Assembly: GCA_944393175.1 (NCBI GenBank)
Contig: CALXZH010000024.1
Location: 29,813 to 93,812 of the forward strand
DNA from: an uncultured Alphaproteobacteria bacterium
Lineage (GTDB): Bacteria > Pseudomonadota > Alphaproteobacteria > RF32 > CAG-239
DNA: 64,000 nucleotides
Direction: 5' to 3'
Part shown: positions 32,885 through 54,770 of the stretch, piece after piece
Numbering within the stretch: the first letter of the stretch is position 1
Layout: every line of letters begins with the position of its first letter
Position numbers and translations under genes: made by a program
The notes under the pieces: model-generated
Told to the model about the DNA's origin: nothing
Seen by the model: only the letters and a program-made list of their open reading frames with translations
Databases searched by the model: none

Positions 32885-32897
32885 TTGATTTGAGTGT

Positions 32898-32933: not shown

Positions 32934-32937
32934 TGTT

Positions 32938-33666: not shown

Positions 33667-33772
33667 AACAGTTAGATATATATTCTTACTCTAGCCGATT
33701 TTTTAGAAAAATAAACCCCTAATTTAGAAAAAACAAAACCTCCTTTTCAAAAGGAGGTTTTGTTTGCTTGGT

Positions 33773-35122: not shown

Positions 35123-35140
35123 ATATTTATCCTAGAAATG

Positions 35141-35629: not shown

Positions 35630-35883
35630 ATTGTTATTCTCTCTTTCTTAATAAAAGTTATTATTCCTAGCTGCATTTTTACCGCTTATTTTTCATAAAA
35701 ACAACAAAAATCTTCTTTTTTTACCAAAATTGAGCAAAAAATAGCCCATTTTTGCTAAAAAATGCTCATTTTTTAATCATATATAAAAAATATGGAAATC
35801 GGTTGTGGGAATACTATCTCACAGTTTGCTTGGCATAAGATATGCATTATTTATAACAGGCTTTTATGGGAAAGGAGAATAAT

Positions 35884-36318
35884 ATGGAAAATTATTTATG
35901 GCTTATTTATGCGTTGTTATCGGCAGTATGTGCCGCTTTGGTCAGTGTGTGCGGAAAAATCGGGTTGCAAGGATTAGATGCAAATACAGCTACCGTTATT
36001 CGGGCGGTGATTATGGCGTTGTTTTTGGTTTGTGTAATGTTGGTACAACAAAATTTCAGCCATGTCAGCGGCATTTTGTCTGACAAAAAAGCCATGCTTT
36101 GGATTGCTATCAGCGGTATTGCCGGAGCATTGTCTTGGTTGTTTTATTTTGTGGCTTTGAAATACGGAAAAGTCTCGCAGGTGGCACCGGTGGATAAGTT
36201 AAGCGTGGTTTTAGCAACAATCATTGCCGTGGCTTTTTTGCACGAAACCGTTTCTTGGCTGAGCGCCGGAGGAATTGCGTTGATTACGGTCGGAATTATT
36301 TGTGTGGCCCTTGGATAA
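35884..36318 (+). CDS. small EamA/DMT-superfamily membrane protein (4-5 TM)
   Basis: 144 aa from ATG 35884 (AAAGGAG RBS); EamA-like half-transporter pattern. Confidence 0.5.
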   Translation: MENYLWLIYALLSAVCAALVSVCGKIGLQGLDANTATVIRAVIMALFLVCVMLVQQNFSHVSGILSDKKAMLWIAISGIAGALSWLFYFVALKYGKVSQVAPVDKLSVVLATIIAVAFLHETVSWLSAGGIALITVGIICVALG

Positions 36319-36375
36319 AATGGCACAAAATTTGCATATAACTTCTTAAAGATTAACTTTGTGAGGATTCTTGAT

Positions 36376-37596: not shown

Positions 37597-37611
37597 ATTT
37601 CACTCTCTTTA

Positions 37612-37655
37612 GGAAAAAAAAGCGTGAAAGTCATTGACTTCCACGCTTTTTTTTG
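37612..37655 (+). terminator. rho-independent terminator
   Basis: AGCGTG...CACGCT long hairpin followed by TTTTTTTT. Confidence 0.5.
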
Positions 37656-37695
37656 TGTATCTTGAATAAGTCATATTATCAGAGGAGACATAGCG

Positions 37696-39693
37696 GTGCC
37701 CGAGTATGATGAAACATTCTTAAATTTAAGATTTATGACTACTTTTGCTTCAATGGCCGCTAAACTTGCCGGAAAAACAAAATCTTTTGTAAAATCACAT
37801 CCGCTGTTTTCGGCTTATGTTAATAGTTTTGCAGATGTTTATCCCGCTTTGGAAAATTTGGCGCTTTCGGCAAATATTGATTTTAATCTTAATCTTTATC
37901 TTCCAAAAGTCGATAAAAATTGCACCTATGATAAGGTTAATGCATTTTTTTCTGTGGCTCCGGAACTTGCTCAAAAGTTATCAGCAAAATTTCCGCATGT
38001 TTATCCTTGGTATGAGTTTGGAAATTCAGAGCAATTATATGCCGCAAAAGTTAATGTCGATGAATCGTCCGATAAAGTTACAAATAAGTATTGGATGAAT
38101 GCCACGCTTAAATTGGCTAATACAGAAATCTTATTGCGCAAATACAACTTGAAATATTATTTGTTTGAAAGTATTGATGAGGCGCTTTTACCTGAAAAGT
38201 TAGCACAGTTGGTACAAGCGCATCTCTATGAAAAAAATTTGAAATGTGACGATACGGACGTTGCTCAAATTTTATATGAAGTTGGTCATAATTTTTTGAT
38301 GAATCATGCCAAAGTCACTTTGCCTGATTTATCGGAAACGGTTGGCGTTCAGTTAGCTAAAAAATACCAAGTGTCGGAAAATCTTACAGCTCATGCAACT
38401 TGGAAAAAAAGTATGGAACAGTTGCATTCCATTATTAGTTCTTCCCAGAAAAAAGATGCGTTTTTTAATCTTTATGAAAGGTATTTGGAAAGACATAGAA
38501 AGGGTTTTGCCGATGCTTTGAGTGATAAAGATATGTTAGAAAAAATTGTTGCCGGAAATAAAATTGTATTTCCATCTGAAACAGAATTGAACAATTATAA
38601 CGTCTCTCATTTGGAAAAAGTGAAGCAATATGAAGAAAATGGTCGTGTTTTTGAAAAAGAGTGTGCTTTGCAAATTACTTCTGTTCTGAGTATGGTTTCT
38701 GCTCAATTATATCGTAAATCTTCCGGTGTGTATGATGCCGTACTTGGGGAAAGTTTTTCTGCATTCGATACCATGCAAAGCTCCCTAAAGAAAAATATTC
38801 CATTTGATTTTTTTGATGCGGTTACAAAAGTTGCCCGATTGGGGAAGCAATCGCAAAATCAAAATACTCATCCGTTTATTTGTGATGATAAAACGCTTTT
38901 AATACTTAAAGAAAAAGAACATTTAACAGATGTCGATAAGAGTATTTTGTTTGCACAATTAGATGCTTTTATTGAGAATTATGCCGCTTTCAGAAAAAAT
39001 GAGAAAAATACTTTCAATCAAACATTTGAAAATGTTTTAGACGATATTTCACTTAGAAAATCTTGTTTACCTAAGCTAAACCTACTTTCCTTAATGAAAT
39101 GGTCGTATAATGAGCAAATTGCAGAACAAAATTTCAATCAAATTCAAAATAAGCAAGATATTGCGTCCAGGCTGGAACACTTGCATCATCATAAATTTGA
39201 CTATTTAGTGGATTATTTAGATACGGCAAAAAATATTTTTCCGGAATGTGCACACATTAATTCGCTTGAGAAAGCCGCTGAAATTGATAAAAATGTGTGT
39301 GTTAAAATCTTAATTCCTTTTTATTGCGGACAGTCTACTCAAATAAATCACAGCCAACAGCAGAATTTTTTTGAAAAATTGTTCTATGATTATGCTCGTT
39401 CCGTGTTCCCTCAGCATAAAGCTATATACAAAATGTTAGAGAGCAAAACAGTACCGCAGGGGAAAGAAGGGCAAAAAATTTTTGGTTTAGGAAAAAAAAT
39501 AAAAGATTTGCAATTTAATTTGCAAAAAAAATCTTATTTGTTTTCAGTATTGAAACAGGTGGATAATTCACTTGAAAATGAGAAAAATGTATATTCTAAC
39601 TACTTGAAAATAAAAAATAATAAGGTTGATGTATTATCCATGAATCAAATGCAAAATTTGGTATTGTCTGTTTGGAAAGAAAGAAAAAAATAA
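37696..39693 (+). CDS. hypothetical protein, Lys/Asn/Glu-rich orphan (665 aa)
   Basis: Long uninterrupted ORF, AT-rich codon usage, no recognisable motifs; ends ~80 bp before tRNA-Phe. Confidence 0.45.
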   Translation: MPEYDETFLNLRFMTTFASMAAKLAGKTKSFVKSHPLFSAYVNSFADVYPALENLALSANIDFNLNLYLPKVDKNCTYDKVNAFFSVAPELAQKLSAKFPHVYPWYEFGNSEQLYAAKVNVDESSDKVTNKYWMNATLKLANTEILLRKYNLKYYLFESIDEALLPEKLAQLVQAHLYEKNLKCDDTDVAQILYEVGHNFLMNHAKVTLPDLSETVGVQLAKKYQVSENLTAHATWKKSMEQLHSIISSSQKKDAFFNLYERYLERHRKGFADALSDKDMLEKIVAGNKIVFPSETELNNYNVSHLEKVKQYEENGRVFEKECALQITSVLSMVSAQLYRKSSGVYDAVLGESFSAFDTMQSSLKKNIPFDFFDAVTKVARLGKQSQNQNTHPFICDDKTLLILKEKEHLTDVDKSILFAQLDAFIENYAAFRKNEKNTFNQTFENVLDDISLRKSCLPKLNLLSLMKWSYNEQIAEQNFNQIQNKQDIASRLEHLHHHKFDYLVDYLDTAKNIFPECAHINSLEKAAEIDKNVCVKILIPFYCGQSTQINHSQQQNFFEKLFYDYARSVFPQHKAIYKMLESKTVPQGKEGQKIFGLGKKIKDLQFNLQKKSYLFSVLKQVDNSLENEKNVYSNYLKIKNNKVDVLSMNQMQNLVLSVWKERKK

Positions 39694-39724
39694 AAATTTT
39701 TTTGTGGTATATATCATTTTTAGC

Positions 39725-39753
39725 TGGACAAGCCCAAAAATATGTTTTATAAG
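39725..39753 (+). promoter_or_regulatory. sigma70-like promoter for tRNA-Phe (TGGACA-17 nt-TATAAG)
   Basis: -35/-10-like hexamers with 17-nt spacing, -10 ends 17 nt before tRNA 5' end. Confidence 0.4.
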
Positions 39754-39770
39754 CTTTCTCGTTGAGCGTT

Positions 39771-39846
<76 letters not shown>

Positions 39847-39974
39847 TCTAAAAGCCTTGGTTTTCCAAGGCTTTTTTTGTATTCAGTTCATGGCGTTTTT
39901 CTTGATGCATTCAACCAGTAAGCAAATAGTAAGCACTTCTATAGTAAATTCTTATAAGTTTGTGTAAGATTTGT

Positions 39975-40301
39975 TTAAATACAAAAGCAGACAATCCTTT
40001 CTTCTGTGTTTATATATAGGCTGTTACTTTCTACTCTTTTTATGAAATCTTCATCTGTTTCCTCCTCTGATTTATATTCGTCAAAATTACCCCAATCGCC
40101 ATTGATGATTGCATTATCTACGACAATATCTGGACGATTATTCTCGGAAATTCCACATTCACGGATTAAATCGCAAAAATAGTCCCATAAACAATCGGGA
40201 ATATGCCAATTGTAATGAGATTCTACAAAATTGCGTCGATTATCTAATAAATCAATATAATCATCGACGTCTAACTCAATTTTTATGGTATTATTTGTCA
40301 T
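39975..40301 (-). CDS. small acidic hypothetical protein (island cargo)
   Basis: ~108 aa from MTNNTIK (AAAGGA RBS); very acidic (DVDDYIDLLD, EEETDEDF); no family recognised. Confidence 0.4.
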   Translation of the reverse strand: MTNNTIKIELDVDDYIDLLDNRRNFVESHYNWHIPDCLWDYFCDLIRECGISENNRPDIVVDNAIINGDWGNFDEYKSEEETDEDFIKRVESNSLYINTEERIVCFCI

Positions 40302-40772
40302 TATCTTTTCCTTTAAGAATAACAGTTGAATAGACAATGTTTTTTTCAAAACATCACTAATCACTTGAAAAATTGGAAAAGCAAACGAATTTTCGTGTTC
40401 TAGGATAACATTAAAATGCGGTAACTTGTTGATTTTTCATGTATAAGTTTTGTTTAAGTGTTATTTTTGTCTTGTATGTATATATAAGTTAAAAAGTTAC
40501 AGAGTAATTTTGAGATTGAAGAGAAATATATTTATTGGCTTTCTATAAGTAAGGTAAAGAAAAATAACGTATTAAAAAAGTATTACATCCCCCATAGTTC
40601 CCAAAATAGGGGGAGTATGTATATGGCTAAAATCTATATATGACCTTAATAGCATGTGATTATCATTTTAGAGTATTTACATCTATAACTCAACTTGATG
40701 TTTTATTAATTTATATTTTACTATTGTGAGATATCTTTTATAGCCTAGATGTTTTTATGGAAAGGAAGAAAC

Positions 40773-41066
40773 ATGAAGAAAGTTTTAGTTGTTTGGGCTG
40801 GTATGTTGGGATTATCAGCTTGTGTAACTCATGTTGATGTTGCTTACCAGCAACAAGGAAGTAATTGCTTGTATTCAGAAAAAGTTTCAGGTGAAGGTCT
40901 TTTTGGCAGAGATAGAGTATTGGAAAAAACGATATCTTATGAAGCAACACAATGTTCTCAAGTTATTGCCAGTGATTTAAAAAATAACAATAATAAGGAT
41001 CAATCAATTGTGACCACTACAGGCTTTTTTGATGATAGTCCGGTAGTTGCTAGAGCTGTTAAGTAG
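40773..41066 (+). CDS. small lipoprotein (island cargo)
   Basis: 97 aa; signal peptide with lipobox LGLSAC; AAGGAAG RBS before ATG 40773. Confidence 0.45.
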   Translation: MKKVLVVWAGMLGLSACVTHVDVAYQQQGSNCLYSEKVSGEGLFGRDRVLEKTISYEATQCSQVIASDLKNNNNKDQSIVTTTGFFDDSPVVARAVK

Positions 41067-41346
41067 TTACAGTTATGCTATGACACATCATAGAGAAGGT
41101 GCTTTGTTAGCGCCTTCTTTTTTTATGTCAATATGTTATGGTGTATATTTCTTGTCCATCTCTTTAATATATAGAGAGATGGACAGAGAAAGAAAAATAA
41201 TCCTTGATTTTGAGAAGTATTATCGCTAACATTTTGTTAGCTAATATTTTATTAGTTAGTGCCTGAAGAGGTGCGGAGCTTTCATCGGCTCCTACTACAT
41301 TCGGTGTTAGGGATAACATCGTTAATTGTTATTATAACAATAATAT

Positions 41347-41380
41347 CCCCGACTATGGCTCAATGGTCGGGGAGCTTTTA
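41347..41380 (+). terminator. hairpin + U-tract (terminator-like) within structured leader
   Basis: CCCCGAC-12 nt-GTCGGGG followed by AGCTTTT. Confidence 0.4.
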
Positions 41381-41473
41381 GCATATGTTCAGAAATCATA
41401 TTTCTGTCTTTGAAAGAATGTGGTTTTAAAAGCTATAAGAATCATTTAATGTAGTATGATTGATGAACTCTCC

Positions 41474-41507
41474 GACCACCTTCTAAACAGGTGGTTTTTC
41501 TTTTAGA
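41474..41507 (+). terminator. hairpin + U-tract immediately upstream of DUF805 gene RBS (possible attenuator)
   Basis: ACCACCT-TCTAAAC-AGGTGGT followed by TTTTTCTTTT; RBS GGAGAGG begins 5 nt later. Confidence 0.45.
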
Positions 41508-41524
41508 TTTTGGAGAGGTATTTC

Positions 41525-42277
41525 ATGAATTCTTTGGTTCAGCTAGTGAAACATTCATTGAATGATGTTAATTCTACAAAAAATATTGATGTAATAAATG
41601 TAACAACTCGTTCAACACTATTACACGCAAAACATGTAAATAAATTTGAAAATCAATCAGATCAAACAAGTGAAATACAACAAATAGATAGCAATGTAGA
41701 GCATCCAATGCAATATCACATATCGCAAGGTACTATGATTTTGTATTTGCTATTTTTGGGTATAATAGGTGCTATTATATTTTATTTTATATTTCGAAAA
41801 GATAAGCATGATATGAAAGAAGTTAAAATGTTGAAAAATAAAAAATTTTCTATTTACAATCCTGCATTTGGCAATTTATTATTTTGTTCTGGTAGAATAA
41901 ATCGTTTACATTATTTTATCTATACACTTATTTTATCTGTGTTTTTTATGTTTCTGGTTTGGGGAATGATTTCCCTCAAAATAGATCCTGAATCCATTTT
42001 ATACACCGTAATTATTTTACGGTGGGTGGTTGGTCTCCCTCTTGTGTCCAAAAGATGCCATGATATTAATGTCAGTGTAAGTTATTATATTATGTATTCT
42101 ATATTTTGCTGCTTACTCTCTTTGTTTTCAGCAGATGAGTTTAGTCAGATTGTAACGTTTTTAATTAGAGGAGTTGATACTATAATTGCATTAATATTGT
42201 TGTTTAAGAAAGGAACTAATGGCAATAATAGATTTGGTATTTCCCCTTTGAAGACTAAGGAGAAAAAAAATGACTAG
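41525..42277 (+). CDS. DUF805-family inner-membrane protein with ~70-aa N-terminal cytoplasmic extension
   Basis: C-terminal 3-TM region with DUF805 hallmarks (GRINRLHY, KRCHDINVS, NRFG near C-terminus); ATG 41525 preceded by GGAGAGG; stop overlaps next gene start (ATGA). Confidence 0.65.
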   Translation: MNSLVQLVKHSLNDVNSTKNIDVINVTTRSTLLHAKHVNKFENQSDQTSEIQQIDSNVEHPMQYHISQGTMILYLLFLGIIGAIIFYFIFRKDKHDMKEVKMLKNKKFSIYNPAFGNLLFCSGRINRLHYFIYTLILSVFFMFLVWGMISLKIDPESILYTVIILRWVVGLPLVSKRCHDINVSVSYYIMYSIFCCLLSLFSADEFSQIVTFLIRGVDTIIALILLFKKGTNGNNRFGISPLKTKEKKND

Positions 42278-43829
42278 AAAATTTAAATATAGCCTTTGTG
42301 GCTTTGTTATATTTATAATTCTTGCCGTTTCTGCTTGTATATGCACGAATAATCAAGATGAGCTTATTCAGGATGATAAAGTTGCTTTTTCTCCTTCTAA
42401 AGAGTGTGAAAATACAATTATTAGCCTTATAAAACATTCTGAGAAAATTGATATAGTCGTGTTTGATATTAATAATGATAATATTGTTGAGGCTTTGCAG
42501 AAAGCTGAAAAACAAGGTAAAAAAATCAGAATACTTACGGATAAAAGACAAGCAGCGACTAAAGCCTCTAAAGTTATAGATTTGTATAAAGCTGGGATTA
42601 ATATTCGTGTAAATTCAAAGAACAAAATTGAACATAACAAATTTGCGGTATTTGATAATAAGTATGTGATTACAGGTTCTTATAATTGGACTAATCCGGC
42701 AAGTGAGAGAAATAGTGAAAATTGCCTTCTTTCTGTGGAAAATGAAGATATTATAGAAGATTATAATAATCGTTTTGAGTATTTGTGGCAGATAAATACA
42801 AAGAAAAAATCTGAGGCGTGGTTCCACAAAAAATTAAATCAAAAACAATATAATAATCGTAAATATATTACCAAACAGCAGCAAAAAAAGATAGAAAAGG
42901 TCTTAGATGATAGTATTCAGACCTTTTCGGCTAAGGGTGGCGCGGTTATTGTTTTAGATGCAGATAGTTCTCAAGTGCTATCGATGACTTCTATCCATAA
43001 AGGGGAGGGTGTTGTTGATTATATTGCGGATTATACATACCAACTTGGTTCGATTTATATGCCGTTTACAGTTGCTTTGGGTATAAAACAAAATGTTGTT
43101 TCAAATACGACGGAATTTGATGTTTCTAAGCCTTTGAATGTTCAAGGGTATAACATTTCAGACGTTAATCCTCTAAAAGTTGATAAAATTACTCTGCAAG
43201 ATGTGTTGTCTAAAAGTTCTAACATTGCGACTGCACAAATTGCTACGGATATAACGCCTAAACAACATAATAAATTTTTAAAATCTTTAGGTTTGGGAGA
43301 ACCGATTGTTTTAGAAAATTTGCATACAGCTAAGCCGATTTTACCGGATTTAGATGATGAAATTACTATAGCCAATTTGGGATATGGTTTTGGTATTTAT
43401 GCAACGCCATTACATGTGGCAGCAGCTTATGCAGCTTTGGTCAATGGCGGTCAATATCATGCCCTATATCTCAAAAAATCTGAAAAAACGGATGGTAAAC
43501 AAGTTATTCCTTCCCAAATATCGAAAGAAATGCGTGAATATTTACGTCAAGTCGTTACAAATGGTTCGGCAAGAAAAGCTAATCTTTCGTATGTAGATGT
43601 TATGGCAAAGACAGGAACTGTGTCTAAAATGATTGATGGAAAGTATCATGACAATATTGTTATAACTCATGTTGTGGGAAATTTTGAATATAATGGTATG
43701 CACTATGTTGTATATGTTTTACTTGATGAACCGCAACCGACAAAACAAACTTATGGGTTTGTAACGTCAGGTTGGAATGCGGTTCCGACGATGGCTCAAA
43801 TTATTAATATCATAGCAAAAAAATCTTAA
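42270..43829 (+). CDS. lipoprotein fusing an N-terminal single-HKD phospholipase-D/Nuc-like nuclease domain to a C-terminal class-B PBP transpeptidase-like domain with degenerate SxxK (SIYM)
   Basis: Lipobox AVSAC; HKD motif H122-x-K-x4-D129 followed by GSYNWT (Nuc/PLD family); C-terminal domain shows PBP motifs SSN (316-318) and KTG (447-449) at canonical spacing, but the SxxK position reads S261-I-Y-M264. Confidence 0.65.
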   Translation: MTRKFKYSLCGFVIFIILAVSACICTNNQDELIQDDKVAFSPSKECENTIISLIKHSEKIDIVVFDINNDNIVEALQKAEKQGKKIRILTDKRQAATKASKVIDLYKAGINIRVNSKNKIEHNKFAVFDNKYVITGSYNWTNPASERNSENCLLSVENEDIIEDYNNRFEYLWQINTKKKSEAWFHKKLNQKQYNNRKYITKQQQKKIEKVLDDSIQTFSAKGGAVIVLDADSSQVLSMTSIHKGEGVVDYIADYTYQLGSIYMPFTVALGIKQNVVSNTTEFDVSKPLNVQGYNISDVNPLKVDKITLQDVLSKSSNIATAQIATDITPKQHNKFLKSLGLGEPIVLENLHTAKPILPDLDDEITIANLGYGFGIYATPLHVAAAYAALVNGGQYHALYLKKSEKTDGKQVIPSQISKEMREYLRQVVTNGSARKANLSYVDVMAKTGTVSKMIDGKYHDNIVITHVVGNFEYNGMHYVVYVLLDEPQPTKQTYGFVTSGWNAVPTMAQIINIIAKKS

Positions 43830-43911
43830 AACATACATCGAGTAACACAAAATAATTATATGCCTGTCCAATATATTATATATATAAATATTGGACAGGC
43901 TATATTATATG

Positions 43912-44970
43912 TTATTTTTCAGCTTTCAGAATGTTGCCGATAGTTGATTTGGAAATTCCTGTTGTATTAGCAATTTCTCTATAGCTTGCACCTTGTTCAT
44001 GCAATGTTTTTACGATAGAATAAGTATCAACCCAAGCAATACCTCCGTCCGTAGTATCTACTAAATCAATATTAAAATTTGAAATGTCTTTGCTCGAAAG
44101 GTTACGGTTCTTTTCAAATTTTAAACGACATCTACCGCCGTAAATCGCATATTCGTCTGATATATCTGAATAGTTTTCTTCAGCTTCTTCTGTTTTGGTG
44201 AGCTTTTTCTTGTTTGGTGTCGTGACTTCAAGATTAATCACTGTATCTAGTATATCTTCTCTTTTAGATATTCCTCTTTGGCCACCTCTCTTTCCAGAAT
44301 GATGAACTAATAATACAGCAATTCCTTGTTTCCTTAGCTCCATTAGCCACTCTTGAATTATAAGCCAAGCATTCCCGTCTAATTCATCTATCTTAGTTAA
44401 AGATGATATATTATCTAAGATAACAAATTTTATATTTTCGTTGAAAATAATATCATTAATATTTTTTTGCATTAAACCATACGCAATATCAATTGAGGTA
44501 AATGGTTGTAAATCCGCTGAAAAAATATGCAAGTTGTCCATTGCATTCACTTCTGTATCAAAATTTTTAGCTATTTTTGAAAAGCGTTCTTGAAGTAAGT
44601 TTGCTTGCATTTCCCCATCAATATATAACACATTTGAAGGTTTATAGGCTTTCCAACGTAAGAATTTACTTCCAGTTGCAATTGCGTAAGCTAAAGACAT
44701 AGCAAAAAAGCTTTTTCCTACTCCTCTATAAGCATGTAACATTGTTAGACTTTTAGCGTGAATAATCGGATCAAGTAGCATTTCTGGCTTAGGCAAATTC
44801 AATTGCATAAAATTCTTTAAGTTAAATATTTTACAAGGATTTTTATTCTCTTGATTATTTGTAATATTTATATTATTGTCGTTTGCAGGATTGGTTGATA
44901 AATCAATCGTTTGTTCTACTCCGTCTTGTTCCAGCAAGGCGGAATTTTTTATATCCATATTATCTTCCAT
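43912..44970 (-). CDS. RepA/DnaB-like RecA-fold ATPase (AAA_25-like) with C-terminal HTH; island replication/mobilisation protein
   Basis: Walker A AYRGVGKS, Walker B FVILDN, HHSGK motif; C-terminal HTH (SYREIANTTGISKSTIGNIL). Confidence 0.65.
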   Translation of the reverse strand: MEDNMDIKNSALLEQDGVEQTIDLSTNPANDNNINITNNQENKNPCKIFNLKNFMQLNLPKPEMLLDPIIHAKSLTMLHAYRGVGKSFFAMSLAYAIATGSKFLRWKAYKPSNVLYIDGEMQANLLQERFSKIAKNFDTEVNAMDNLHIFSADLQPFTSIDIAYGLMQKNINDIIFNENIKFVILDNISSLTKIDELDGNAWLIIQEWLMELRKQGIAVLLVHHSGKRGGQRGISKREDILDTVINLEVTTPNKKKLTKTEEAEENYSDISDEYAIYGGRCRLKFEKNRNLSSKDISNFNIDLVDTTDGGIAWVDTYSIVKTLHEQGASYREIANTTGISKSTIGNILKAEK

Positions 44971-45217
44971 AGTTTATCTCCTTTTTTGAATATTCAGAAG
45001 TTGATGTTACTTTAGAGGTTTGCGAATCTAACCAATCTAAAACGTCTTGCTTTTTGTATAGTCGCTTGTTTCCCAATTTTATATAAGGGATACCACCGCC
45101 TGATACAGCTTTGCAGTTAAACCATGAGATTGATTTGTTGAGATATGCAGCAACAATTTTTGTTGGCAACAATGCATCTGCCGGAGCAGATAGAAAATTA
45201 TTTAAATTATTATTCAA
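44960..45217 (-). CDS. AlpA-family phage/island regulatory protein (excisionase-like HTH)
   Basis: 85 aa; AlpA-like pattern (PTKIVAAYLNKSISWFNC...GIPYIKLGNKRLYKKQDVLDWL); overlaps repA-like start by 11 nt. Confidence 0.65.
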   Translation of the reverse strand: MNNNLNNFLSAPADALLPTKIVAAYLNKSISWFNCKAVSGGGIPYIKLGNKRLYKKQDVLDWLDSQTSKVTSTSEYSKKEINYGR

Positions 45218-45345
45218 ATCTTTTTCCTTTCTTTAAAAGGTTACAGTTTCAATCAACTGCATTCAAAGAATTAGGAAAAATCTTTAGAGAAGTATAGTCC
45301 TCAACTTAGATGATGTTGTACCCTACTGGGTAAATGTACAAACTT

Positions 45346-46029
45346 TTATTGAATATTCTTTTTCTTCTTGGGATATAACATTCTTCGAATCGATAAAGAA
45401 TAGTCTGAATTGCACCAATTATATGCTATTTCTTTTGCATATTCCTGAAGTTTTTTTATATTTTCTTCTTTATTGGCAAAATGATTTATGGTTAATTTTT
45501 TATTCAAGTTTTTTTGCTGTTCAAATAAATCCTTGGTATATTTCTTTAGTCTCTCATGCTTGTCGTTTTTGGCTTTTACTCCTGCGTTGCTTATTTCGAG
45601 CTGTCTTTCTTGTAATATTTGTTTAGCCAGTTCTGCATCGGTATATTTGAGATGTTTGATACAAATATCAAATCCATTAGAAAATACTAAGAAGGCAAGG
45701 TATAATCCGTCTTTGTTATTTTGAAGTCCTGTATATATATTGTGTAGCTTTTGTTGTAGAACTGTCAGTTCTTTATTGGGATAAACTTTATTACCTTTCC
45801 AAAAATCAACTACTGTCTTTATGGTTAAATTTTTTTCTTCTTTTTCTAGCAAAAATACAGAAATATTGATTAAATTTATGAATAATGAGCTTGTTGCATA
45901 ATTATCAGCCCCAAACCCCGTTAAATTATAAAAATATTCGCTGGGATCTAATATAAAATAATCCTGATTAAGATTATAAGCATCGGTTATCAATAATTCA
46001 TAAATTTCTCTGATTTCTTGTCTTTTCAT
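45346..46029 (-). CDS. hypothetical protein (island, between int and alpA)
   Basis: 227-aa ORF, no recognisable motif; sits where satellite regulators are often found. Confidence 0.4.
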   Translation of the reverse strand: MKRQEIREIYELLITDAYNLNQDYFILDPSEYFYNLTGFGADNYATSSLFINLINISVFLLEKEEKNLTIKTVVDFWKGNKVYPNKELTVLQQKLHNIYTGLQNNKDGLYLAFLVFSNGFDICIKHLKYTDAELAKQILQERQLEISNAGVKAKNDKHERLKKYTKDLFEQQKNLNKKLTINHFANKEENIKKLQEYAKEIAYNWCNSDYSLSIRRMLYPKKKKNIQ

Positions 46030-46047
46030 AAAATAACCTTCTCTGTG

Positions 46048-47274
46048 TTATACTATTTTATTAAATATGTTTACCACATTATTGGTTTCATTTTCTTTAA
46101 CTCCGGCTTGTTTTAGTATGTAATCTTCTATAAGTTGCATTGGCTTACGCAAGGTTTCAGTTTCAAATTGGATATATCCTGCGGTAACATCATCTTCGGA
46201 ATGGTTTAAGAGCTTTTTTAGTGTAAAATTTGTTATTCCGGCAATATGATTATTGGCAATACTGGCAAAAGTTCGGCGAATATCATGTAAAGAGAATTTA
46301 ATACCGCTGTTTTCTGCAATGTGTTGTACAGTTTTTCTTTGATTTTCAACATGCCCACTTTTATTTTGAGCTGGAAAAACGTATATCGAATCGTTATTTT
46401 CTTTTAATTTTAACAAAAACTCTCTTAAATATTCTCCCATCGGTAGAATGTGTTCTTTGTGGTTTTTGGTATGTTCAAAGGTAATGGTGTTTAATTTGAA
46501 GTCAATATTGCACCATTTTAGAGTTCCGGCTTCTTGGTCTCGACATCCAGTAAATAGAATGAATAAACATTGATTTTTAACTGTTTTTACGTTTTCAGTG
46601 TCTTGTTCATGGTGTTGAAGTCCAAAAAAGAAGGTTTTAATTTGAGATGGGTGAATGTAACTTTGTCTTCTGGGTACTTTATTCCATAATTTGAAGGCTT
46701 TTAATCGATTGCAAGGATTGGAAGGAATGATTGGTTCTCCATTTACTATATATTTTTCCATTGCAAAATTAAATACGGCTCTTAAAAATCTAAAATCAGA
46801 GTTAGCAATAGATTTTGATGATTTAGATGTATCCAGAAATCTATTTTCTATCATTTCACGAGAGATATTCGTTAGAGCTTTATTTGCCCAATCTTTAAAA
46901 CAAAGGCGCATACTCCGTTCATATTTTATTTTTGTGCTTTCAGTAATGGTTTTAATCTTAATGTATTCTTCATAGGCTTGTTGTAGGGTAATACTTTTTG
47001 TCTTTTCTTCCTTTTCTCTGGTTGTAATGTCTATGCCTTGAGCTAGATCACCTAGATATTTTTTTGCTATTCTACGAGCTTCTTCGGGAGTAAAAACATT
47101 AATCTGACCTATTTTTTTACGAATTGTTTTTCCTCTATCGTTTCTCGCTTGTATAATATAGCTGATTTTTTTCTTGGTTACTTTTATGCCGAATCCTTTT
47201 AGGTCATCATCCCAGTAAAATTCTTCTTTGTCTGTGAATTTTAACTTATCAATATTTGATTTATTAATTTTCAT
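46048..47274 (-). CDS. int: tyrosine site-specific integrase, P4-type (N-terminal DUF4102-like arm-binding domain)
   Basis: 408 aa; catalytic R (GCRDQEAGTLKW), HDIRRT, and C-terminal VTAGYI Tyr; N-terminal MKINKSNIDKLKFTDKEEFYWDD...GFGIKV typical of P4-family integrases that target tRNA genes. Confidence 0.9.
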   Translation of the reverse strand: MKINKSNIDKLKFTDKEEFYWDDDLKGFGIKVTKKKISYIIQARNDRGKTIRKKIGQINVFTPEEARRIAKKYLGDLAQGIDITTREKEEKTKSITLQQAYEEYIKIKTITESTKIKYERSMRLCFKDWANKALTNISREMIENRFLDTSKSSKSIANSDFRFLRAVFNFAMEKYIVNGEPIIPSNPCNRLKAFKLWNKVPRRQSYIHPSQIKTFFFGLQHHEQDTENVKTVKNQCLFILFTGCRDQEAGTLKWCNIDFKLNTITFEHTKNHKEHILPMGEYLREFLLKLKENNDSIYVFPAQNKSGHVENQRKTVQHIAENSGIKFSLHDIRRTFASIANNHIAGITNFTLKKLLNHSEDDVTAGYIQFETETLRKPMQLIEDYILKQAGVKENETNNVVNIFNKIV

Positions 47275-47446
47275 TTTAAATTTCCTTTCTAAAATCAGTA
47301 AGCAAATAGTAAGCAGATTTGATAGAAATGCTTATGAGATGAGAAATGTTTCTGTAAGAATGAAAATTAAATAAATCAAGTAAAAACAATTGGTTATATA
47401 AGAAACTGTAAACAGAACAAATATGTTGTAATATCGCTTTACCAAA

Positions 47447-47526
47447 ACTGAAAATCCTCGTGTCGGCGGTTCAATCCCGTCCCCGAGCACCATCTAAAAG
47501 CCTTGGTTTTCCAAGGCTTTTGTTGT
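47447..47526 (+). repeat. attR-like direct repeat: copy of tRNA-Phe nt 31-76 plus downstream terminator
   Basis: ACTGAAAATCCTCGTGTCGGCGGTTCAATCCCGTCCCCGAGCACCATCTAAAAGCCTTGGTTTTCCAAGGCTTTT identical to 39801-39875. Confidence 0.9.
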
Positions 47527-47930
47527 ATGGTGCTCTCGCCAATCGAGCGGCGCAGGGCTTGCTCTCTTGGGGACGGGCCTCGCTTTGAAACTTAATTTCA
47601 CTTCCGAAACTGTTCGTTTCGTCGTTCAATAAATTTTCAAAGATGTTGCATACAAAAACAATCAATCGTGATTGTTTTTGCTTAGCCATCCCAACTCGCA
47701 CCATCTAAAAGCCTTGGTTTTCCAAGGCTTTTGTTGTATGGTGCTCTCGCCAATCGAGCGGCGCAGGGCTTGCTCTCTTGGGGACGGGCCTCGCTTTGAA
47801 ACTTAATTTCACTTCCGAAATTGTTCGTTTCGTCGTTCAATAAATTTTCAAAGATGTTGCAGACAAAAACAATCAATCGTGATTGTTTTTGCTTAGCCAT
47901 CCCAACTCGCACCATCTAAAAGCCTCCGAT
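47493..47930 (+). repeat. 211-bp tandem repeat, 2 complete copies + 16-bp start of a third; each unit ends in a tRNA-3'-end mimic (CCCAACTCGCACCA)
   Basis: Units 47493-47703 and 47704-47914 near-identical (period 211); third begins TCTAAAAGCCT then diverges. Confidence 0.9.
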
Positions 47931-48063
47931 TAAGAAAGTTTTGTGTGGCTAAAAGAATTTATTATCTTGTGTCTTACGCCTTATCCTTATATTGTATGAG
48001 TCTAAATTGAAAAAACACTTAGTTTTTTTTTGTCTTTCAGTGATTGATATTATGGATAGGTAG

Positions 48064-48789
48064 ATGAAAATATTTCGTTCGGTGATTTCTTCACGCGGTA
48101 CGTGGCGTTTATATTTCTTGGGAATTAAAATTTTTTCGGTTAAACGAAAGTTGCCTAGTATTTGTGTGGATGCAAAAAATGATGTCTCTGTTCCAAAATT
48201 GAAATATTTGAAAGTTTCTGTTCACGGAAAAAATAATAAGATTTATGTTACTTCGGATATGGATGAAAATACGCGAATATCCTTAATGGTTTTTGGTAAT
48301 AATAATGTTATTCGCATCAATACAAAGCGCTTTATTAATGCTGATATTATTATTGGTTTAAATGATGTTAAAATAGAAAATGCTTTTCTGCTTATTGATG
48401 ATGAAACCTCTATAAACGGTGTAAAAATTTTAATGTCTGAAAACGGTAGCAGGGTTGTTATCGGAAAGGACTGTATGTTTTCTTCAGGGGTAGAAATGTG
48501 GTGTTCGGATACTCACTGTGTATTGGATTTGCAAGGAAATTTATTAAATGTCGGACAATTTATTGAAATAGGGAATCATGTTTGGGTGGGAAAAGATGTT
48601 CACTTTACCAAAAATACTAAAATTGCAGATAATAGTATTGTCGGGTGGTGTTCTAATATTACGGCTCAATTTGATGAGAAAAACGTTATTGTGGCTGGAA
48701 ATCCGGCTAGAATTGTTAAGCGCAATATTCAGTGGAACAGTATGCGTCCGAATGAATATTTAACGTACCAAGTTCTACAGAATAAATAA
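48064..48789 (+). CDS. left-handed beta-helix (hexapeptide-repeat) acetyltransferase
   Basis: 241 aa; hexapeptide repeats in C-terminal half (IGNHVWVGKDVHFTKNTKIADNSIVGWCSNI...VIVAGNPARIV). Confidence 0.55.
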   Translation: MKIFRSVISSRGTWRLYFLGIKIFSVKRKLPSICVDAKNDVSVPKLKYLKVSVHGKNNKIYVTSDMDENTRISLMVFGNNNVIRINTKRFINADIIIGLNDVKIENAFLLIDDETSINGVKILMSENGSRVVIGKDCMFSSGVEMWCSDTHCVLDLQGNLLNVGQFIEIGNHVWVGKDVHFTKNTKIADNSIVGWCSNITAQFDEKNVIVAGNPARIVKRNIQWNSMRPNEYLTYQVLQNK

Positions 48790-48914
48790 TATCTTGTGTT
48801 TTTTCTTTAATGTGCAATTTTTTTTAGAAAATTTCTTTTTTTCTTCATTTATAAATAGTTTTTTAACTTCTTTTCGTTATATGTAGTATAAACATTTTAC
48901 GAAAGGACAAAACG

Positions 48915-49196
48915 ATGAAAAACTTTAACTCTACTTCTAATTCTTCTTTAAACTTAAGTGAAAGCGCTATTCGTGAAGCTGCTTACTATATTTGGAAAAA
49001 TAACGGTTGCCCGGCTAACACCAGCTTGAGCGACTGGAATGCTGCTATTAACCAACTTTCTTCTATGGCTGCTTTGAACTCTGCTGCTAAGAAAATTTCT
49101 ACAAAGACTTCTTCTTGCAAAGCTTCTACCTTGGTTAAGAAAACTCCGGTTAAAAAAGCTGCTAAAACTACTGCCAAAAAGAAATCTTCTAAATAG
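48915..49196 (+). CDS. DUF2934-family small protein
   Basis: IREAAYYIWKNNGCPANTSLSDWNAA matches DUF2934 signature; Ala/Lys-rich tail. Confidence 0.5.
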   Translation: MKNFNSTSNSSLNLSESAIREAAYYIWKNNGCPANTSLSDWNAAINQLSSMAALNSAAKKISTKTSSCKASTLVKKTPVKKAAKTTAKKKSSK

Positions 49197-49302
49197 TTGG
49201 TATGTTGGTAAACTAAAGGCTCCGCAAAAGGAGCCTTTTTTCATAATTATTTAATCTTTTTGATTTAATATGCTTTTATTATTAAGTGTTGGGAGATGTC
49301 AT

Positions 49303-49545
49303 ATGTTTGATGAAAAAACTATTCGTGAGACGGCTTATTATATTTGGAAAAATAACGGTTGTCCGGCTAATACTTCTACTCAGGATTGGAATGCCGCAAT
49401 TGAGCAATTAGAGCAGAAAGATGCTTTGGCTACCGCTAAACAAATATCTTCTTTGTATCAAGCGGCTTTCTTGAATTCTTTGACCAAAAGCAAAAGCCGT
49501 AAAAAAGATAGCTTACAGTTAATGCGCCAAATCATTTTGAAATAA
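49303..49545 (+). CDS. DUF2934-family small protein (paralog)
   Basis: IRETAYYIWKNNGCPANTSTQDWNAA; ATG 49303 preceded by GGGAGA RBS. Confidence 0.5.
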   Translation: MFDEKTIRETAYYIWKNNGCPANTSTQDWNAAIEQLEQKDALATAKQISSLYQAAFLNSLTKSKSRKKDSLQLMRQIILK

Positions 49546-49561
49546 AATTTCTTTGTGATAA

Positions 49562-49598
49562 CAAAAGCCCCGAAGTTTTAAGCTTTCGGGGTTTTTTG
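49562..49598. terminator. bidirectional rho-independent terminator
   Basis: CCCCGAA-loop-TTCGGGG hairpin flanked by A-run/T-run between convergent genes. Confidence 0.65.
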
Positions 49599-49603
49599 TT
49601 GGA

Positions 49604-52057
49604 TTATTTTTTGGCGGCCATAATTTTGAGGGCATCTTCCAGGGTTAATTCTTTATCCTTAAATTCTTTGGGGATGGCATAATTGTTTTTGCCGCATTTA
49701 ATATAAGGACCATATCTGCCGCTCAAAACCGTAATATCGGCTTTGTCTTTGGGGTTTTGACCCAAAATTTTGCCGCTCGGGCGTTCGGCAACATTTTTTA
49801 ATATCTCTTCGGCACGCTCTAACGTAATGTTAAAAATGGTATCGTTGCCGGTTAAAGATTTTGATTTGTTGCCTTGTTTGAGGTAAGGGCCGAACTTGCC
49901 GATATTAACTTCTATGCCGTTGCCGAGCGTACGGGGAAGTGAGGCTAAAATTTGGGCTTGTTCGGGGGTTATTTCTTCTGGTTTTAAGTTTCTGGGCAGG
50001 GCAATCCTTTTGGGTTTTTCGGTGGTGGCGGTTGCATCTTCACCCAGCTGGACATAATAACCATAAGGTCCTTTTTTAAGATATACTTTTAAGCCGTTGA
50101 TTTCACCCATTTCTTTGTCTTCCGGATTGGGGGCCTTGGGTGTATCGTTGCTCATCTCTTCGGTGACATCGGTCAAGGGTTTGGTGTATTTGCATTCAGG
50201 GTAGTTTGAGCACCCCAAAAAGGCGCCGAATTTGCCCAGTTTAATACTTAGCCTGCCTTTGCCGCATTCCGGACATATGCGCGGGTCTGAGCCGTCTGCA
50301 CGGGGCGGAAACAGGTGATACGACAAAACTTCATCAATTTTATTGATAACTTCGCTGATTTGTAAGGGTTGTACGGCGTCAATATTTTTGATGAACTTGG
50401 TCCAGAAGCCGCCCAAGAGTTTTTTCCAATCCATTTCGCCGTTGGATATGTCATCCAGATATTCCTCTAACTGAGCCGTGAAATCATATTCAACATATTT
50501 TTTGAAGAAGTTTTCCAAAAAGACGGTGACAATACGGCCGCGGTCTTCAGGAATAAAACGCAACTTCTCAACGCGAACATATTTGCGCTCTTGCAAAACG
50601 GCAATAATCGAAGCATAAGTTGACGGACGACCAATACCCAATTCTTCCAGCTTTTTGACCAAACTTGCTTCGGTAAACCGCGGAGGAGGGGTGGTGAAGT
50701 GTTGTTCCGGCGTAATCTCGCCTTTGGTTACGGCTTCTCCGGTTTCAACATTCGGCAAAATGCGATTTTCATCATCGTCATCACTGTCGTCTTTGCTTTC
50801 AACGTATAATTTTAAGAAACCGTCAAAGTTGATAACCTGTCCATTGGCACGCAATAAAATTTGTCCGTCGGCGGAGGTGGCATCAACCGTTACTTTATCC
50901 ATAATTGCCGGGTTCATTTGACAAGCGACGGTTCTTTTCCAGATGAGCTCATAGAGTTTATGAGAATCGGAATCCAGTTTGCTTTCGAGTTTTTTCGGAG
51001 TTTCATCAACATGAGCCGGACGAATAGCTTCGTGGGCTTCTTGGGCATTTTTAGACTTAGTTTTATATTCTTTGGCCGTTTTGGGCAAATAGGCTTCGCC
51101 AAAATACTTCAAAATCGCGGCACGGCAAGCCTCAATGGCTTCTTTGGATAAGTTAACCGCATCGGTACGCATATAGGTGATAAAACCGGCTTCGTAGAGC
51201 TTTTGGGCAATTTGCATGGTTTTTTTGGCACTGAAACGCAGTTTGCGTGCGGCTTCTTGTTGCAAGGTTGAGGTGGTGAAAGGTGGCGCCGGATAGCGGT
51301 TGGTCTTTTTGCGCTCAACATTGGAAATGGCAAATTCTTGCGCTTCAATCTTTGCTTTAGCTTCCAGTGCCTTGGCCTCTGAATTTAAATCAAATTTTTC
51401 TAATTTCTTGCCGTCCAGATTAATCAGGTGCGTTTTTATCAGGGCTTGGGTTTTGGTAATTAAATCGGCGTCAACCGTCCAATATTCTTCGGCTTTGAAT
51501 TTTTCAATTTCGGTTTCGCGGTCGCAAATCAGACGCAAAGCAACCGATTGAACACGTCCGGCTGACTTGGAACCGGGAAGTTTGCGCCACAAAACCGGAG
51601 ATAACGTAAAACCAACCAAATAATCTAAGGCTCGGCGCGCCATATAGGCTGAAACTAAGTTCTCGTCAATTTGGCGGGGATGTTTGATGGCTTCGGTAAT
51701 GGCCGATTTGGTGATTTCATGGAAGACAACACGCTCGATTTTTTTGTCTTTGATTTTTTTGCGGGCGGTCAGTTCTGCCAAAATGTGCCAAGCAATTGCT
51801 TCTCCTTCTCTATCCGGGTCGGATGCGAGAATAATGGTGTCGGCGTCTTTGACTGCGGCAATTATATCGTTGAGGTGTTTTTTGCCGCCGGGGCTTAACT
51901 CCCATTTCATTGCGAAATCTTCATCGGGATTGACCGAACCGTCTTTGCTCGGCAAATCTCTGATGTGGCCGAAACTCGCCAGTACTTTATAGTCACTTCC
52001 TAAATATTTGTTGATTGTTTTGGCTTTGGCAGGAGATTCCACAATAACTAATTTCAT
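49604..52057 (-). CDS. topA: DNA topoisomerase I
   Basis: 817 aa; TOPRIM N-terminus (MKLVIVESPAKAKTI), catalytic region, C-terminal zinc-ribbon (CPECGKGRL...CSNYPEC). Confidence 0.9.
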   Translation of the reverse strand: MKLVIVESPAKAKTINKYLGSDYKVLASFGHIRDLPSKDGSVNPDEDFAMKWELSPGGKKHLNDIIAAVKDADTIILASDPDREGEAIAWHILAELTARKKIKDKKIERVVFHEITKSAITEAIKHPRQIDENLVSAYMARRALDYLVGFTLSPVLWRKLPGSKSAGRVQSVALRLICDRETEIEKFKAEEYWTVDADLITKTQALIKTHLINLDGKKLEKFDLNSEAKALEAKAKIEAQEFAISNVERKKTNRYPAPPFTTSTLQQEAARKLRFSAKKTMQIAQKLYEAGFITYMRTDAVNLSKEAIEACRAAILKYFGEAYLPKTAKEYKTKSKNAQEAHEAIRPAHVDETPKKLESKLDSDSHKLYELIWKRTVACQMNPAIMDKVTVDATSADGQILLRANGQVINFDGFLKLYVESKDDSDDDDENRILPNVETGEAVTKGEITPEQHFTTPPPRFTEASLVKKLEELGIGRPSTYASIIAVLQERKYVRVEKLRFIPEDRGRIVTVFLENFFKKYVEYDFTAQLEEYLDDISNGEMDWKKLLGGFWTKFIKNIDAVQPLQISEVINKIDEVLSYHLFPPRADGSDPRICPECGKGRLSIKLGKFGAFLGCSNYPECKYTKPLTDVTEEMSNDTPKAPNPEDKEMGEINGLKVYLKKGPYGYYVQLGEDATATTEKPKRIALPRNLKPEEITPEQAQILASLPRTLGNGIEVNIGKFGPYLKQGNKSKSLTGNDTIFNITLERAEEILKNVAERPSGKILGQNPKDKADITVLSGRYGPYIKCGKNNYAIPKEFKDKELTLEDALKIMAAKK

Positions 52058-52071
52058 AACTCTTCTTCCAT

Positions 52072-53202: not shown

Positions 53203-53209
53203 TAGACGT

Positions 53210-53851: not shown

Positions 53852-54049
53852 AGTTTCTGGCCTATATAATTGTTAAAACTCAACTTATTGTTAAACGTAT
53901 CGTAACCTTTTTTCAACTATATTTTTATATCATGTGCATGGAAGATAAGATGAAAAGTGTCTTTTCTGCATAAAAGCTGAAATTTATAGATGACAAGACG
54001 ATAAAAATAGTTAATATGAAAAAAACTACTCGAGAAGGTTATAAAAATT

Positions 54050-54769: not shown

Positions 54770-54770
54770 T

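Follow-up and report, generated by a model that had tools for sequence, protein, structure and literature searches.

The 64,000-nucleotide stretch of DNA analysed here (the window), from an uncultured gut alphaproteobacterium, carries a true, recently mobile insertion in a tRNA-Phe gene. We put at roughly 80% the probability that we are dealing with a site-specific integrative island of 7.6 kb, one of a family in uncultured gut Alphaproteobacteria, with the mechanism and the cargo that we propose below.

A polymorphic insertion at tRNA-Phe

The insertion site is an intact tRNA-Phe(GAA) gene at 39771-39846 (+), on which ARAGORN and Rfam (RF00005, 69.3 bits) agree with the initial annotation. 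A repeat search identified a direct repeat of 82 nt, which runs from the anticodon loop of this gene through the CCA end to a terminator hairpin, at 39801-39882 (+; attL) and 47447-47528 (+; attR), with a start-to-start distance of 7,646 bp and a length that far exceeds chance. The tRNA-Phe gene now takes its 3' half from the island side of attL, and the displaced 3' half lies with its terminator at attR. This copy had previously been called exact and about 80 bp long; its extent stands, but 81 of the 82 positions are identical, and only the first 53 nt (39801-39853, equal to 47447-47499) form the core that attL and attR have in common with an empty site, where the terminator differs from that in the repeat.

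The empty site is provided by conspecific metagenome contigs. In one of them (L087) the tRNA-Phe gene is uninterrupted, and its two alignments at 99.3% identity, which cover window positions 30417-39853 and 47447-58789, overlap at the junction by 53 nt (L087 9386-9438). A second contig of the same species (L088) is also empty, so the check for unoccupied sites that had been suggested earlier, once run, indicates insertion and not an ancestral region. Other samples contain the same island (L095, L096; 99.9% identity), and it is the combination of this recurrence with the conspecific empty sites that identifies the insertion as recently mobile. No excised or circular form of the island was found, the contigs with its integrase ending within the att repeat. 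One relative (L125), the only such case, seemed to form a circle, but its ends are joined at an internal repeat of exactly 31 nt and the assembly used k=31, so this circle is probably an artefact.

To the right of attR lie two tandem units of 211 bp, with 17 nt of a third (47487-47925, +), which the initial annotation had missed. Each unit begins with GCACCA and the terminator, and ends with a conserved hairpin module and a degenerate tRNA-Phe 3' end. The units are outside the island and older than it, since the empty site has them too.

Base composition had also been used to argue for horizontal origin. The island is indeed AT-rich relative to the remainder of the window (GC 0.31 versus 0.40), but its chromosomal neighbours are equally so (0.32 for a 665-aa ORF, 0.33 for an acetyltransferase), and intergenic DNA at 41067-41509, with a GC of 0.34, is no more AT-rich than the island genes. 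No origin or iterons were recognisable in the island, and promoter-like sites are no more frequent there than in shuffled sequence.

A conserved backbone with a hypervariable gene

The gene next to attR (46048-47274, -) encodes a tyrosine integrase of P4-type architecture (Pfam Arm-DNA-bind_3 and Phage_integrase; phrog_1), whose catalytic residues (R, HxxR, H and Y) can be recognised from the sequence. The proposed P4-type enzyme beside the right repeat is thus present, and the att repeats are, as had been suggested, those of a tRNA-targeting integrase, here in a tRNA-Phe-specific island. The integrase would recombine attP with the chromosomal tRNA-Phe gene, with attP supplying a duplicate tRNA-Phe 3' half together with a terminator of its own, such that a functional tRNA would be rebuilt at attL and the native 3' half displaced to attR. 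Paired 11-nt repeats inside both ends are likely arm-type sites for the N-terminal domain of the integrase. The attL-side repeat at 39912-39958 (+), a candidate binding site, consists of tandem 11-mers CAGTAAGCAAATAGTAAGCA and matches at 76% the attR-side repeat at 47293-47338 (+), where the repeat search found AGTAAGCAAAT and AGTAAGCAGAT. A 23-nt core of these repeats is kept beside the integrase in four related islands (L003, L004, L006, L008), and their geometry is the same in the window and in L124.

The reported AlpA-like and RepA-like genes are likewise recovered. The former (44960-45217, -) encodes an 85-aa HTH_17 protein, AlpA/excisionase-like (PF12728; phrog_2528), with a Pfam score of 27.6 bits that is marginal against the cut-off of 27. 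It is presumably a recombination directionality factor or activator, in our scheme a likely excisionase or AlpA-type activator. The latter (43912-44970, -) is an AAA_25 ATPase with a RepA/DnaB-like RecA fold (Pfam, 102 bits) and a C-terminal HTH. Its PHROG matches cover the helicase portion of primase-helicases, and its more distant relatives have fused primase domains; we presume that it initiates replication of the excised circle or serves as its helicase. An all-helical orphan of 227 aa (45346-46029, -), represented by only 5 clusters among 5.8 billion proteins, is encoded between the integrase gene and the HTH_17 gene. Its position is conserved and its sequence hypervariable, with 24-26% identity to its positional equivalent in L003 and L130, where adjacent genes are 90% identical, and it is a candidate regulator or sensor.

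Islands in metagenome-assembled genomes of related gut Alphaproteobacteria keep this gene order, from the integrase through the orphan and HTH_17 to AAA_25 (L003/4/6/8, L007, L009/10, L011-13, L124, L126, L130). A tRNA-Phe 3' half adjoins the integrase in about five related islands (L003, L004, L007, L008, L009, L010; partially in L006), and a tRNA-Met 3' half takes its place in L124. Comparison of the window with L003 shows a mosaic backbone: identity is 90% for the integrase and for HTH_17, 74% for AAA_25, approximately 25% for the orphan and 55% for the PLD-transpeptidase fusion described below. An integrase at 90% identity between islands whose other genes are at 55-74% points to recent exchange.

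Accessory genes

The suggestion that the variable region holds anti-phage cargo is true of the family, as relatives carry Type I R-M, TIR_2, AbiJ, AAA_15, RhuM-Fic and PIN genes in the cargo slot, and L014 an exported SNase. In the island itself no complete PADLOC system was matched, with weak matches to the PLD domain only. Two small cargo genes are of unknown function. An acidic protein of 108 aa (39975-40301, -) has about 92 representative homologues, some of them C-terminal domains of longer proteins and one, at 62% identity, in the L014 island, and has no match in Pfam, PHROG or PADLOC. A predicted lipoprotein of 97 aa (40773-41066, +), which starts MKKVLVVWAGMLGLSAC and is also called as a gene in L095, has no family match in the same three collections.

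The other two cargo genes overlap by 8 nt, and hence probably form one operon. The first encodes a DUF805 multi-pass membrane protein (41510-42277, +; PF05656, 42.8 bits), with a 70% homologue at the same position in L003. The second (42270-43829, +) encodes a predicted exported or membrane-anchored fusion of a PLD domain (PLDc_2, 89 bits) and a transpeptidase domain (Transpeptidase, 136 bits). At its N terminus is a helix that contains a lipobox; it further comprises a Nuc/Zucchini-like PLD domain with a single HKD motif and a class-B PBP transpeptidase fold. In the AlphaFold2 model (pLDDT 83.5) the C-terminal 300 aa resemble the transpeptidase domains of PBP3/FtsI and PBP2 (Foldseek TM 0.84-0.86), and the protein shares with class B PBPs the SxN and KTG motifs and the N-terminal membrane anchor. 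In contrast to these enzymes, the PLD domain replaces the pedestal (PBP_dimer), and the SxxK motif reads S-I-Y-M in the family alignment and in the alignment to PBP2, with methionine in place of the lysine. Other family members have AAYM or PVYQ at this position, and those that keep SxxK have ITG instead of KTG. The transpeptidase domain is apparently inactive, and the fusion is probably not a transpeptidase, because the lysine is replaced here and the serine is also lost in other members. The HKD motif is invariant (16 of 16 family members).

The fusion is rare. Two contigs (L001, L129) carry it away from any island, and PLD-only homologues (47-59% identity) occupy a moron-like position in a gut phage contig, between tail-fibre and lysis genes. 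We infer that the accessory slot would supply, next to the DUF805 protein, a periplasmic nuclease that is tethered to peptidoglycan, includes a catalytically degenerate PBP-transpeptidase fold and may attack incoming DNA. Periplasmic DNases encoded by mobile elements, such as IdeA and SxnA of Vibrio ICEs and Dns of Campylobacter CJIE1, block natural transformation (PMC12378983), and they share with the fusion the position of a predicted exported nuclease among the accessory cargo of an integrative element. However, they are of the EndA/NucA type, whereas the putative nuclease of the island has a single-HKD PLD/Nuc-like fold, is fused to a PBP-transpeptidase fold and is paired with a small membrane protein.

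Mode of transfer and relation to known elements

How does the island travel? Its own transfer and packaging genes are absent, so it would have to ride on a helper, be it a phage, a conjugative element or transformation. The initial annotation matched the int-alpA-rep core to P4-like or PICI-like phage satellites. This label is not supported: Pfam and PHROG searches found no primase domain, no Psu, Delta or Sid, no capsid-morphogenesis and no small-terminase (terS) gene in the island, and no PHROG structural or packaging match. The trio alone corresponds to 'Type C', which the SatelliteFinder authors leave out because such loci may be mobile elements of another kind (PMC10085698).

A satellite in a broader sense is rather unlikely. 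A helper phage would induce the island, the AAA_25 protein would replicate it, concatemers would enter unmodified helper capsids and the orphan would act as phage sensor or repressor. Satellite repressors diverge far faster than neighbouring genes, as the orphan does. The 7.6-kb size is compatible with such a satellite, and distant AAA_25 relatives (30-38% identity) are present on IMG/VR contigs. The island resembles marine VEIMEs (PMC9618062). It also resembles PICMI, the phage-inducible chromosomal minimalist islands of Vibrionaceae (approximately 6-8 kb; PMC10803314), which share with it the order of integrase, small adjacent gene, AlpA-type HTH and one replication gene, the absence of capsid and terS genes, and accessory genes that protect the host. 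PICMI require only int, alpA and primase, and PF12728 is accepted as AlpA (PMC10803314). However, the replication gene here is an AAA_25 ATPase without primase instead of a DUF3987/DUF5906 primase, and the site is tRNA-Phe instead of the vicinity of fis. Moreover, ppi homologues are missing along with the packaging genes named above, at most three of five PICI markers are present, close relatives of the island are absent from the phage collection and IMG/VR, and no sign of encapsidation, a helper phage, concatemers or virions was found.

Transfer without any phage, whether as an integrative mobilizable element that a conjugative helper moves or through natural transformation with homologous recombination in the flanks, seems distinctly unlikely. 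ATPases of the AAA_25/RepA type are a typical feature of small mobilizable plasmids, DprA is encoded nearby in the host (L087 annotation), and the 99.3% identity between the flanks of empty and occupied alleles would permit allelic replacement; against mobilization, no relaxase, oriT or coupling-protein gene was found in the island, and none of 72,556 plasmids matches its DNA.

It is improbable that the island is an immobile, stranded remnant of a formerly larger prophage or ICE, in which case the polymorphism would stem from one ancient gain, or from a loss when the repeats recombined. Some of the copies from other samples show decay, with the orphan gene split in L133 and AAA_25 split in L126-128, so that some island copies need not be mobile, and the lack of a detected circle fits a remnant as well. 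In the window, however, all eight ORFs are intact, and the integrase identity noted above speaks for recent exchange. A compact backbone that recurs in several species, at two different tRNA genes and with different cargo, argues for a self-contained element type over a random remnant.

A classical P4-like or PICI-type satellite is highly improbable: the integrase architecture, the AlpA-like protein and the nearby replication ATPase fit, but the hijacking genes that define P4 (Psu, Delta, Sid) and those that define PICI (capsid-morphogenesis, terS) are both missing, the ATPase lacks a primase and is not a P4 alpha-type primase-helicase, and the host belongs to the Alphaproteobacteria, whereas reports of P4-like elements are from Enterobacterales (PMC8628076).

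The integrative island that we favour shares with other tRNA-targeting islands with P4-type integrases the integrase adjoining attR, the att repeat that restores the tRNA 3' half, the compositional bias, the sister-strain empty site and the variable accessory region; it differs in its very small size, its own AAA_25-HTH replication-type protein and its uncultured gut alphaproteobacterial host. [quoted passage not shown]

In conclusion, the island is not demonstrably a phage satellite, although it may have a minimalist lifestyle that depends on a helper, and its element type, a tRNA-targeting integrative island, is ordinary.

Insertion at tRNA-Phe and its surroundings

The 7.6-kb island is a real and recent insertion. 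As the initial annotation had it, an intact tRNA-Phe(GAA), called by both ARAGORN and Rfam at 39771-39846, stands at its left end, and the 3' half of this tRNA recurs at both boundaries. The copies form an 82-nt direct repeat (attL, 39801-39882; attR, 47447-47528) that is identical at 81 of 82 positions. A repeat search of the window places the two copies 7,646 bp apart, and each, read from the sequence, runs from the anticodon loop through the CCA end and the terminator hairpin. That the region was inserted and is not ancestral was borne out when exact copies of the flanking proteins were sought in public assemblies. Both L087, a contig of 27 kb, and the contig L088 carry an empty, uninterrupted tRNA-Phe site between flanks that are 99.3% identical (for L087, over 30417-39853 and 47447-58789), with the acetyltransferase gene directly after the 665-aa flanking ORF. 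The 53 nt shared by the two L087 alignments are the att core. The identical island is present in other samples (L095 and L096, 99.9%). Because occupied and empty alleles thus coexist in one species, the empty-site test favors an inserted element, and an integrative island at tRNA-Phe, an element type already known, is the right reading.

The core held in common with the empty site comprises only the 53-nt tRNA part, and the terminator that follows tRNA-Phe differs: it reads AACCTCCGATGAAGGAGGTT in L087 (9432-9470) and GCCTTGGTTTTCCAAGGC in the island-bearing strain, where the latter form is present at attL and attR both (39847-39882 and 47493-47528). This difference hints that the tRNA-Phe site has been through previous rounds of integration or exchange. 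Base composition, from which a horizontal origin had also been argued, is a less clear guide. The island is indeed AT-rich, with a GC content of 0.31 against 0.40 in the rest of the window; however, the chromosomal genes on both sides are just as AT-rich, so that composition alone would not delimit it. These site-flanking genes (37696-39693 and 48064-49545; GC 0.32-0.35) comprise the 665-aa ORF without a family match, two DUF2934 genes and the hexapeptide acetyltransferase; they too may have been acquired here, at an earlier time, the site being a hotspot.

To the right of attR lie two tandem 211-bp units (47487-47925), which the empty site has too. Each unit ends in a conserved hairpin module of ~45 nt (GCAGACAAAAACAAYC...GRTTGTTTTTSCTTAGC), behind which comes a degenerate version of the final ~17 nt of tRNA-Phe. 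The module also stands behind the tRNA-Met of the window (16263-16606), there preceding a copy of the last 17 nt of tRNA-Met, and at both tRNAs it is found ~160-200 nt downstream; in general the module is trailed by the final ~17 nt of whichever tRNA lies upstream, with further loci in L003, L007, L087 and L135-L187. The module is non-coding, its stem covaries between species, and it has no Rfam match; on the window Rfam matched only two tRNAs and no other RNA family. A metagenome scan found it in 53 contigs, several of them labeled human gut. In those that were checked, a tRNA-Ser gene precedes it by ~160 nt, and in some contigs two copies bracket ~2 kb of ORFs of unknown function. Possibly, a second family of elements that target tRNA 3' ends has this module as its conserved end. 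The 77-aa ORFs within the 211-bp units were rejected as genes because a stop codon, read from the alignment, interrupts the frame in the homologue from L003, a related locus.

Backbone, relatives and mobility

Inward from attL, the island encodes a 108-aa acidic protein, a 97-aa predicted lipoprotein, a DUF805 membrane protein and a 519-aa fusion of PLDc_2 and Transpeptidase domains; after the fusion, on the opposite strand, come the AAA_25-HTH protein, the HTH_17 protein, a 227-aa orphan and the integrase. Pfam confirms the three backbone genes named in the initial annotation. The tyrosine integrase (46048-47274, minus strand) combines an N-terminal Arm-DNA-bind_3 with a Phage_integrase domain, its catalytic Arg, HxxR, His and Tyr are all readable, and its gene lies 173 nt from attR. 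The AlpA-like protein (44960-45217, minus strand) is an HTH_17 at a marginal score of 27.6 bits, and the RepA-like ATPase (43912-44970, minus strand) is an AAA_25 protein with a C-terminal helix-turn-helix. A 46-nt arm repeat of tandem 11-mers is located at 39912-39958, with its counterpart at 47293-47338. The non-coding stretches revealed neither iterons nor repeats resembling an origin, and promoter-like sites are no more frequent than in shuffled sequence. The 108-aa acidic protein (39975-40301, minus strand) belongs to a family of ~92 representative clusters; several homologues are C-terminal domains of longer proteins without a Pfam domain, one is fused to DUF3873, and a 62% homologue occurs in the island L014, adjoining tRNA-Arg.

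A profile scan with AAA_25, taking one genome per species, found the closest relatives only in MAGs labeled uncultured Alphaproteobacteria, several of them from gut catalogues. Mapping the island proteins on these loci recovers the order integrase, positionally conserved unknown gene, HTH_17 and AAA_25 in at least six lineages. The tRNA-Phe 3' half adjoins the integrase in L003, L004, L007, L008, L009 and L010, and partially in L006; in the relative L124 the 3' half of tRNA-Met takes its place, and the arm repeats have the same geometry as in the window. Compared with its L003 counterpart, the island of the window shows 90% identity in integrase and HTH_17, 74% in AAA_25 and only ~25% in the gene that separates the first two; on sequence grounds, the backbone is a mosaic. 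The 227-aa orphan has five homologue clusters among 5.8 billion proteins, no match in Pfam, PHROG, NCBIfam or PADLOC, and an AlphaFold model whose pLDDT of 56.5 is too low to support a search by fold. Its hypervariable sequence in a conserved slot suggests a role in specificity or regulation.

Beyond AAA_25 the relatives carry Type I restriction-modification genes with an embedded TIR_2, AbiJ, AAA_15, Fic/RhuM or PIN genes, and L014 encodes an exported nuclease of the staphylococcal type; this variable cargo indicates that the family shuttles defense-type genes. At L124 13289-17015, immediately to the right of the tRNA-Met island, another element follows that encodes a 345-aa integrase and a resolvase, so that mobile elements have accreted in tandem at a single tRNA.

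In look-ups of integrase contigs, no concatemeric or circular form of the island was found: the contigs that match the window's integrase all end inside the att repeat, and none spans a junction. The Logan contig L125 (6,856 bp), which looked like a circularly permuted copy of the L124 island, was rejected as probably a de Bruijn artifact. Its junction is an internal arm repeat of exactly 31 nt, while the real att, the tRNA-Met 3' half, lies further out, and as Logan assemblies use k=31, a junction repeat of just this length discounts the contig as evidence of excision.

Phage satellite or another class of element

What kind of element is defined by this backbone? A helper-dependent lifestyle is the most natural means of spread for the island, and it might be a satellite of some kind, with for instance a PICMI- or VEIME-like mode. 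We consider such satellite status unlikely. PICMI, a minimalist satellite family, requires a DUF3987/DUF5906 primase and integration at fis, and its model accepts PF05930 or PF12728 as alpA (PMC10803314). The island has the integrase and an alpA of the PF12728 type, but Pfam finds no DUF3987/DUF5906 primase domain in it, and it sits in tRNA-Phe and not next to fis. More generally, Pfam and PHROG searches of every island ORF found no primase, Toprim or D5 domain, no terS, terminase, capsid, capsid-morphogenesis or PHROG structural match, and no match to Sid, Psu or Delta, though remote analogues of these may be hidden among the ORFs without an assigned function. Compared with 50,697 phage records, the whole island gave no significant DNA match except at the PLD gene, where the match is a phage fragment and not an island. 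No close relatives were found in phage genomes or IMG/VR, and tblastn of the AAA_25 protein against the phage collection gave no match. Nor did the whole island match the plasmid collection, and domain searches revealed no relaxase, one of the two marks of an integrative mobilizable element, the other being an oriT. The layout and the displaced tRNA remnants do resemble those of tycheposons.

The narrower label of a P4-like or PICI-like satellite, proposed in the initial annotation, was not earned, as tests for the defining genes were mostly negative, and we regard it as highly improbable. The P4-type integrase is common to both by domain architecture only; P4-like satellites carry an alpha primase-helicase, whereas the island has only the AAA_25 ATPase, which in PHROG matches just the helicase part of phage primase-helicases, has no sequence match in the PDB, and in a profile search gave weak RecA-family matches only. 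SatelliteFinder defines PICIs by four or five of five core markers (PMC10085698). Among int, alpA and replicase, the island offers the integrase, the marginally scoring HTH_17 for alpA and an ATPase of helicase type only, and judged by these genes it would be 'Type C' with at most three PICI markers, a category that the SatelliteFinder authors excluded (PMC10085698). The island illustrates that an integrase, AlpA and a replicase alone should not mean 'satellite'.

The PLD-transpeptidase fusion

The most interesting part of the island is its cargo: a rare fusion in which the nuclease motif is invariant and the transpeptidase motifs are degenerate, whose small membrane partners are interchangeable, and which nearly always neighbors the replication gene of the island. 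The fusion gene (PLD-TP, 42270-43829) overlaps the 3' end of the DUF805 gene by 8 nt. Its architecture occurs in 16 clusters among 5.8 billion proteins, all of metagenome or MAG origin. In five island lineages PLD-TP directly adjoins AAA_25 in convergent orientation, and two cases lie outside islands. A small multi-pass membrane ORF is always found upstream, overlapping or abutting the start of PLD-TP, and these partners belong to at least four unrelated families. In the contig L129, two different small membrane ORFs precede the full PLD-TP gene, and the 56-aa ORF that separates them (7377-7547) duplicates the PLD-TP N-terminus in truncated form, a scar of swapping of the membrane-partner cassette.

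The nuclease half carries the motif HxK(x)4D(x)6GSxN, of which H122, K124, D129, G136, S137 and N139 are invariant in 16 of 16 family members, and the PLD domain matches Nuc (1byr) and MitoPLD in sequence. The protein groups with the single-HKD PLD nucleases (Nuc/NucT/Zucchini-like) and is a predicted nuclease. The other half resembles class B PBPs in its transpeptidase fold with SxN and KTG, but differs from them in that PLDc_2 replaces the N-terminal pedestal (PBP_dimer) and the catalytic SxxK is lost: GSIYMPF aligns to GSAMKPF of gonococcal PBP2, with Lys changed to Met. Elsewhere in the family this site reads AAYM or PVYQ, the serine also being lost, and in the clade that retains SxxK, KTG is replaced by ITG. 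The AlphaFold model (pLDDT 83.5) shows an N-terminal helix, a linker, the PLD domain and a PBP3-like domain, the last with a TM score of 0.84-0.86 to solved TP domains.

Gut phage contigs encode homologues that consist of the PLD part only and share the N-terminus of the fusion (47-59% identity). Stand-alone exported PLD proteins (phrog_12711) are encoded at L117 7929-8477, L118 2207-2815 and L134 5099-5656, and the L117 gene lies between tail-fiber and lysis (endolysin) genes, a typical moron position. There is precedent in the periplasmic DNases that ICEs and prophages carry, which prevent natural transformation (PMC12378983). PADLOC 2.0 called no complete system, giving weak PLD-domain matches to DrmC, MkoC and DpdK with the partner genes absent, and a literature search on PLD-transpeptidase fusions returned nothing relevant.

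Taken with the motifs, the model and the membrane partner, the phage homologues and the precedent of periplasmic DNases lead us to propose tentatively, at less than even odds, that PLD-TP may be a nuclease that is exported, tethered to the wall and active on incoming DNA. More speculatively, with a probability of about one in five, the membrane protein and PLD-TP together may form a hitherto undescribed envelope barrier to the entry of phage, transforming or conjugative DNA, in which the nuclease would be tethered at, or targeted to, peptidoglycan by the dead transpeptidase fold, and may travel as a semi-core module of a new family of minimalist, helper-dependent islands, possibly phage satellites, in gut Alphaproteobacteria.

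In conclusion, the tRNA-Phe site provides an island of clear boundaries, of which both the occupied and the empty allele are known, in the little-studied uncultured gut Alphaproteobacteria, and defines a compact backbone of integrase, hypervariable orphan, HTH_17 and AAA_25-HTH that moves defense genes across species and tRNA sites. The cargo of the island deserves an experiment: if PLD-TP proves to be a periplasmic device against DNA entry, it would represent a new envelope-level defense or anti-transformation function.
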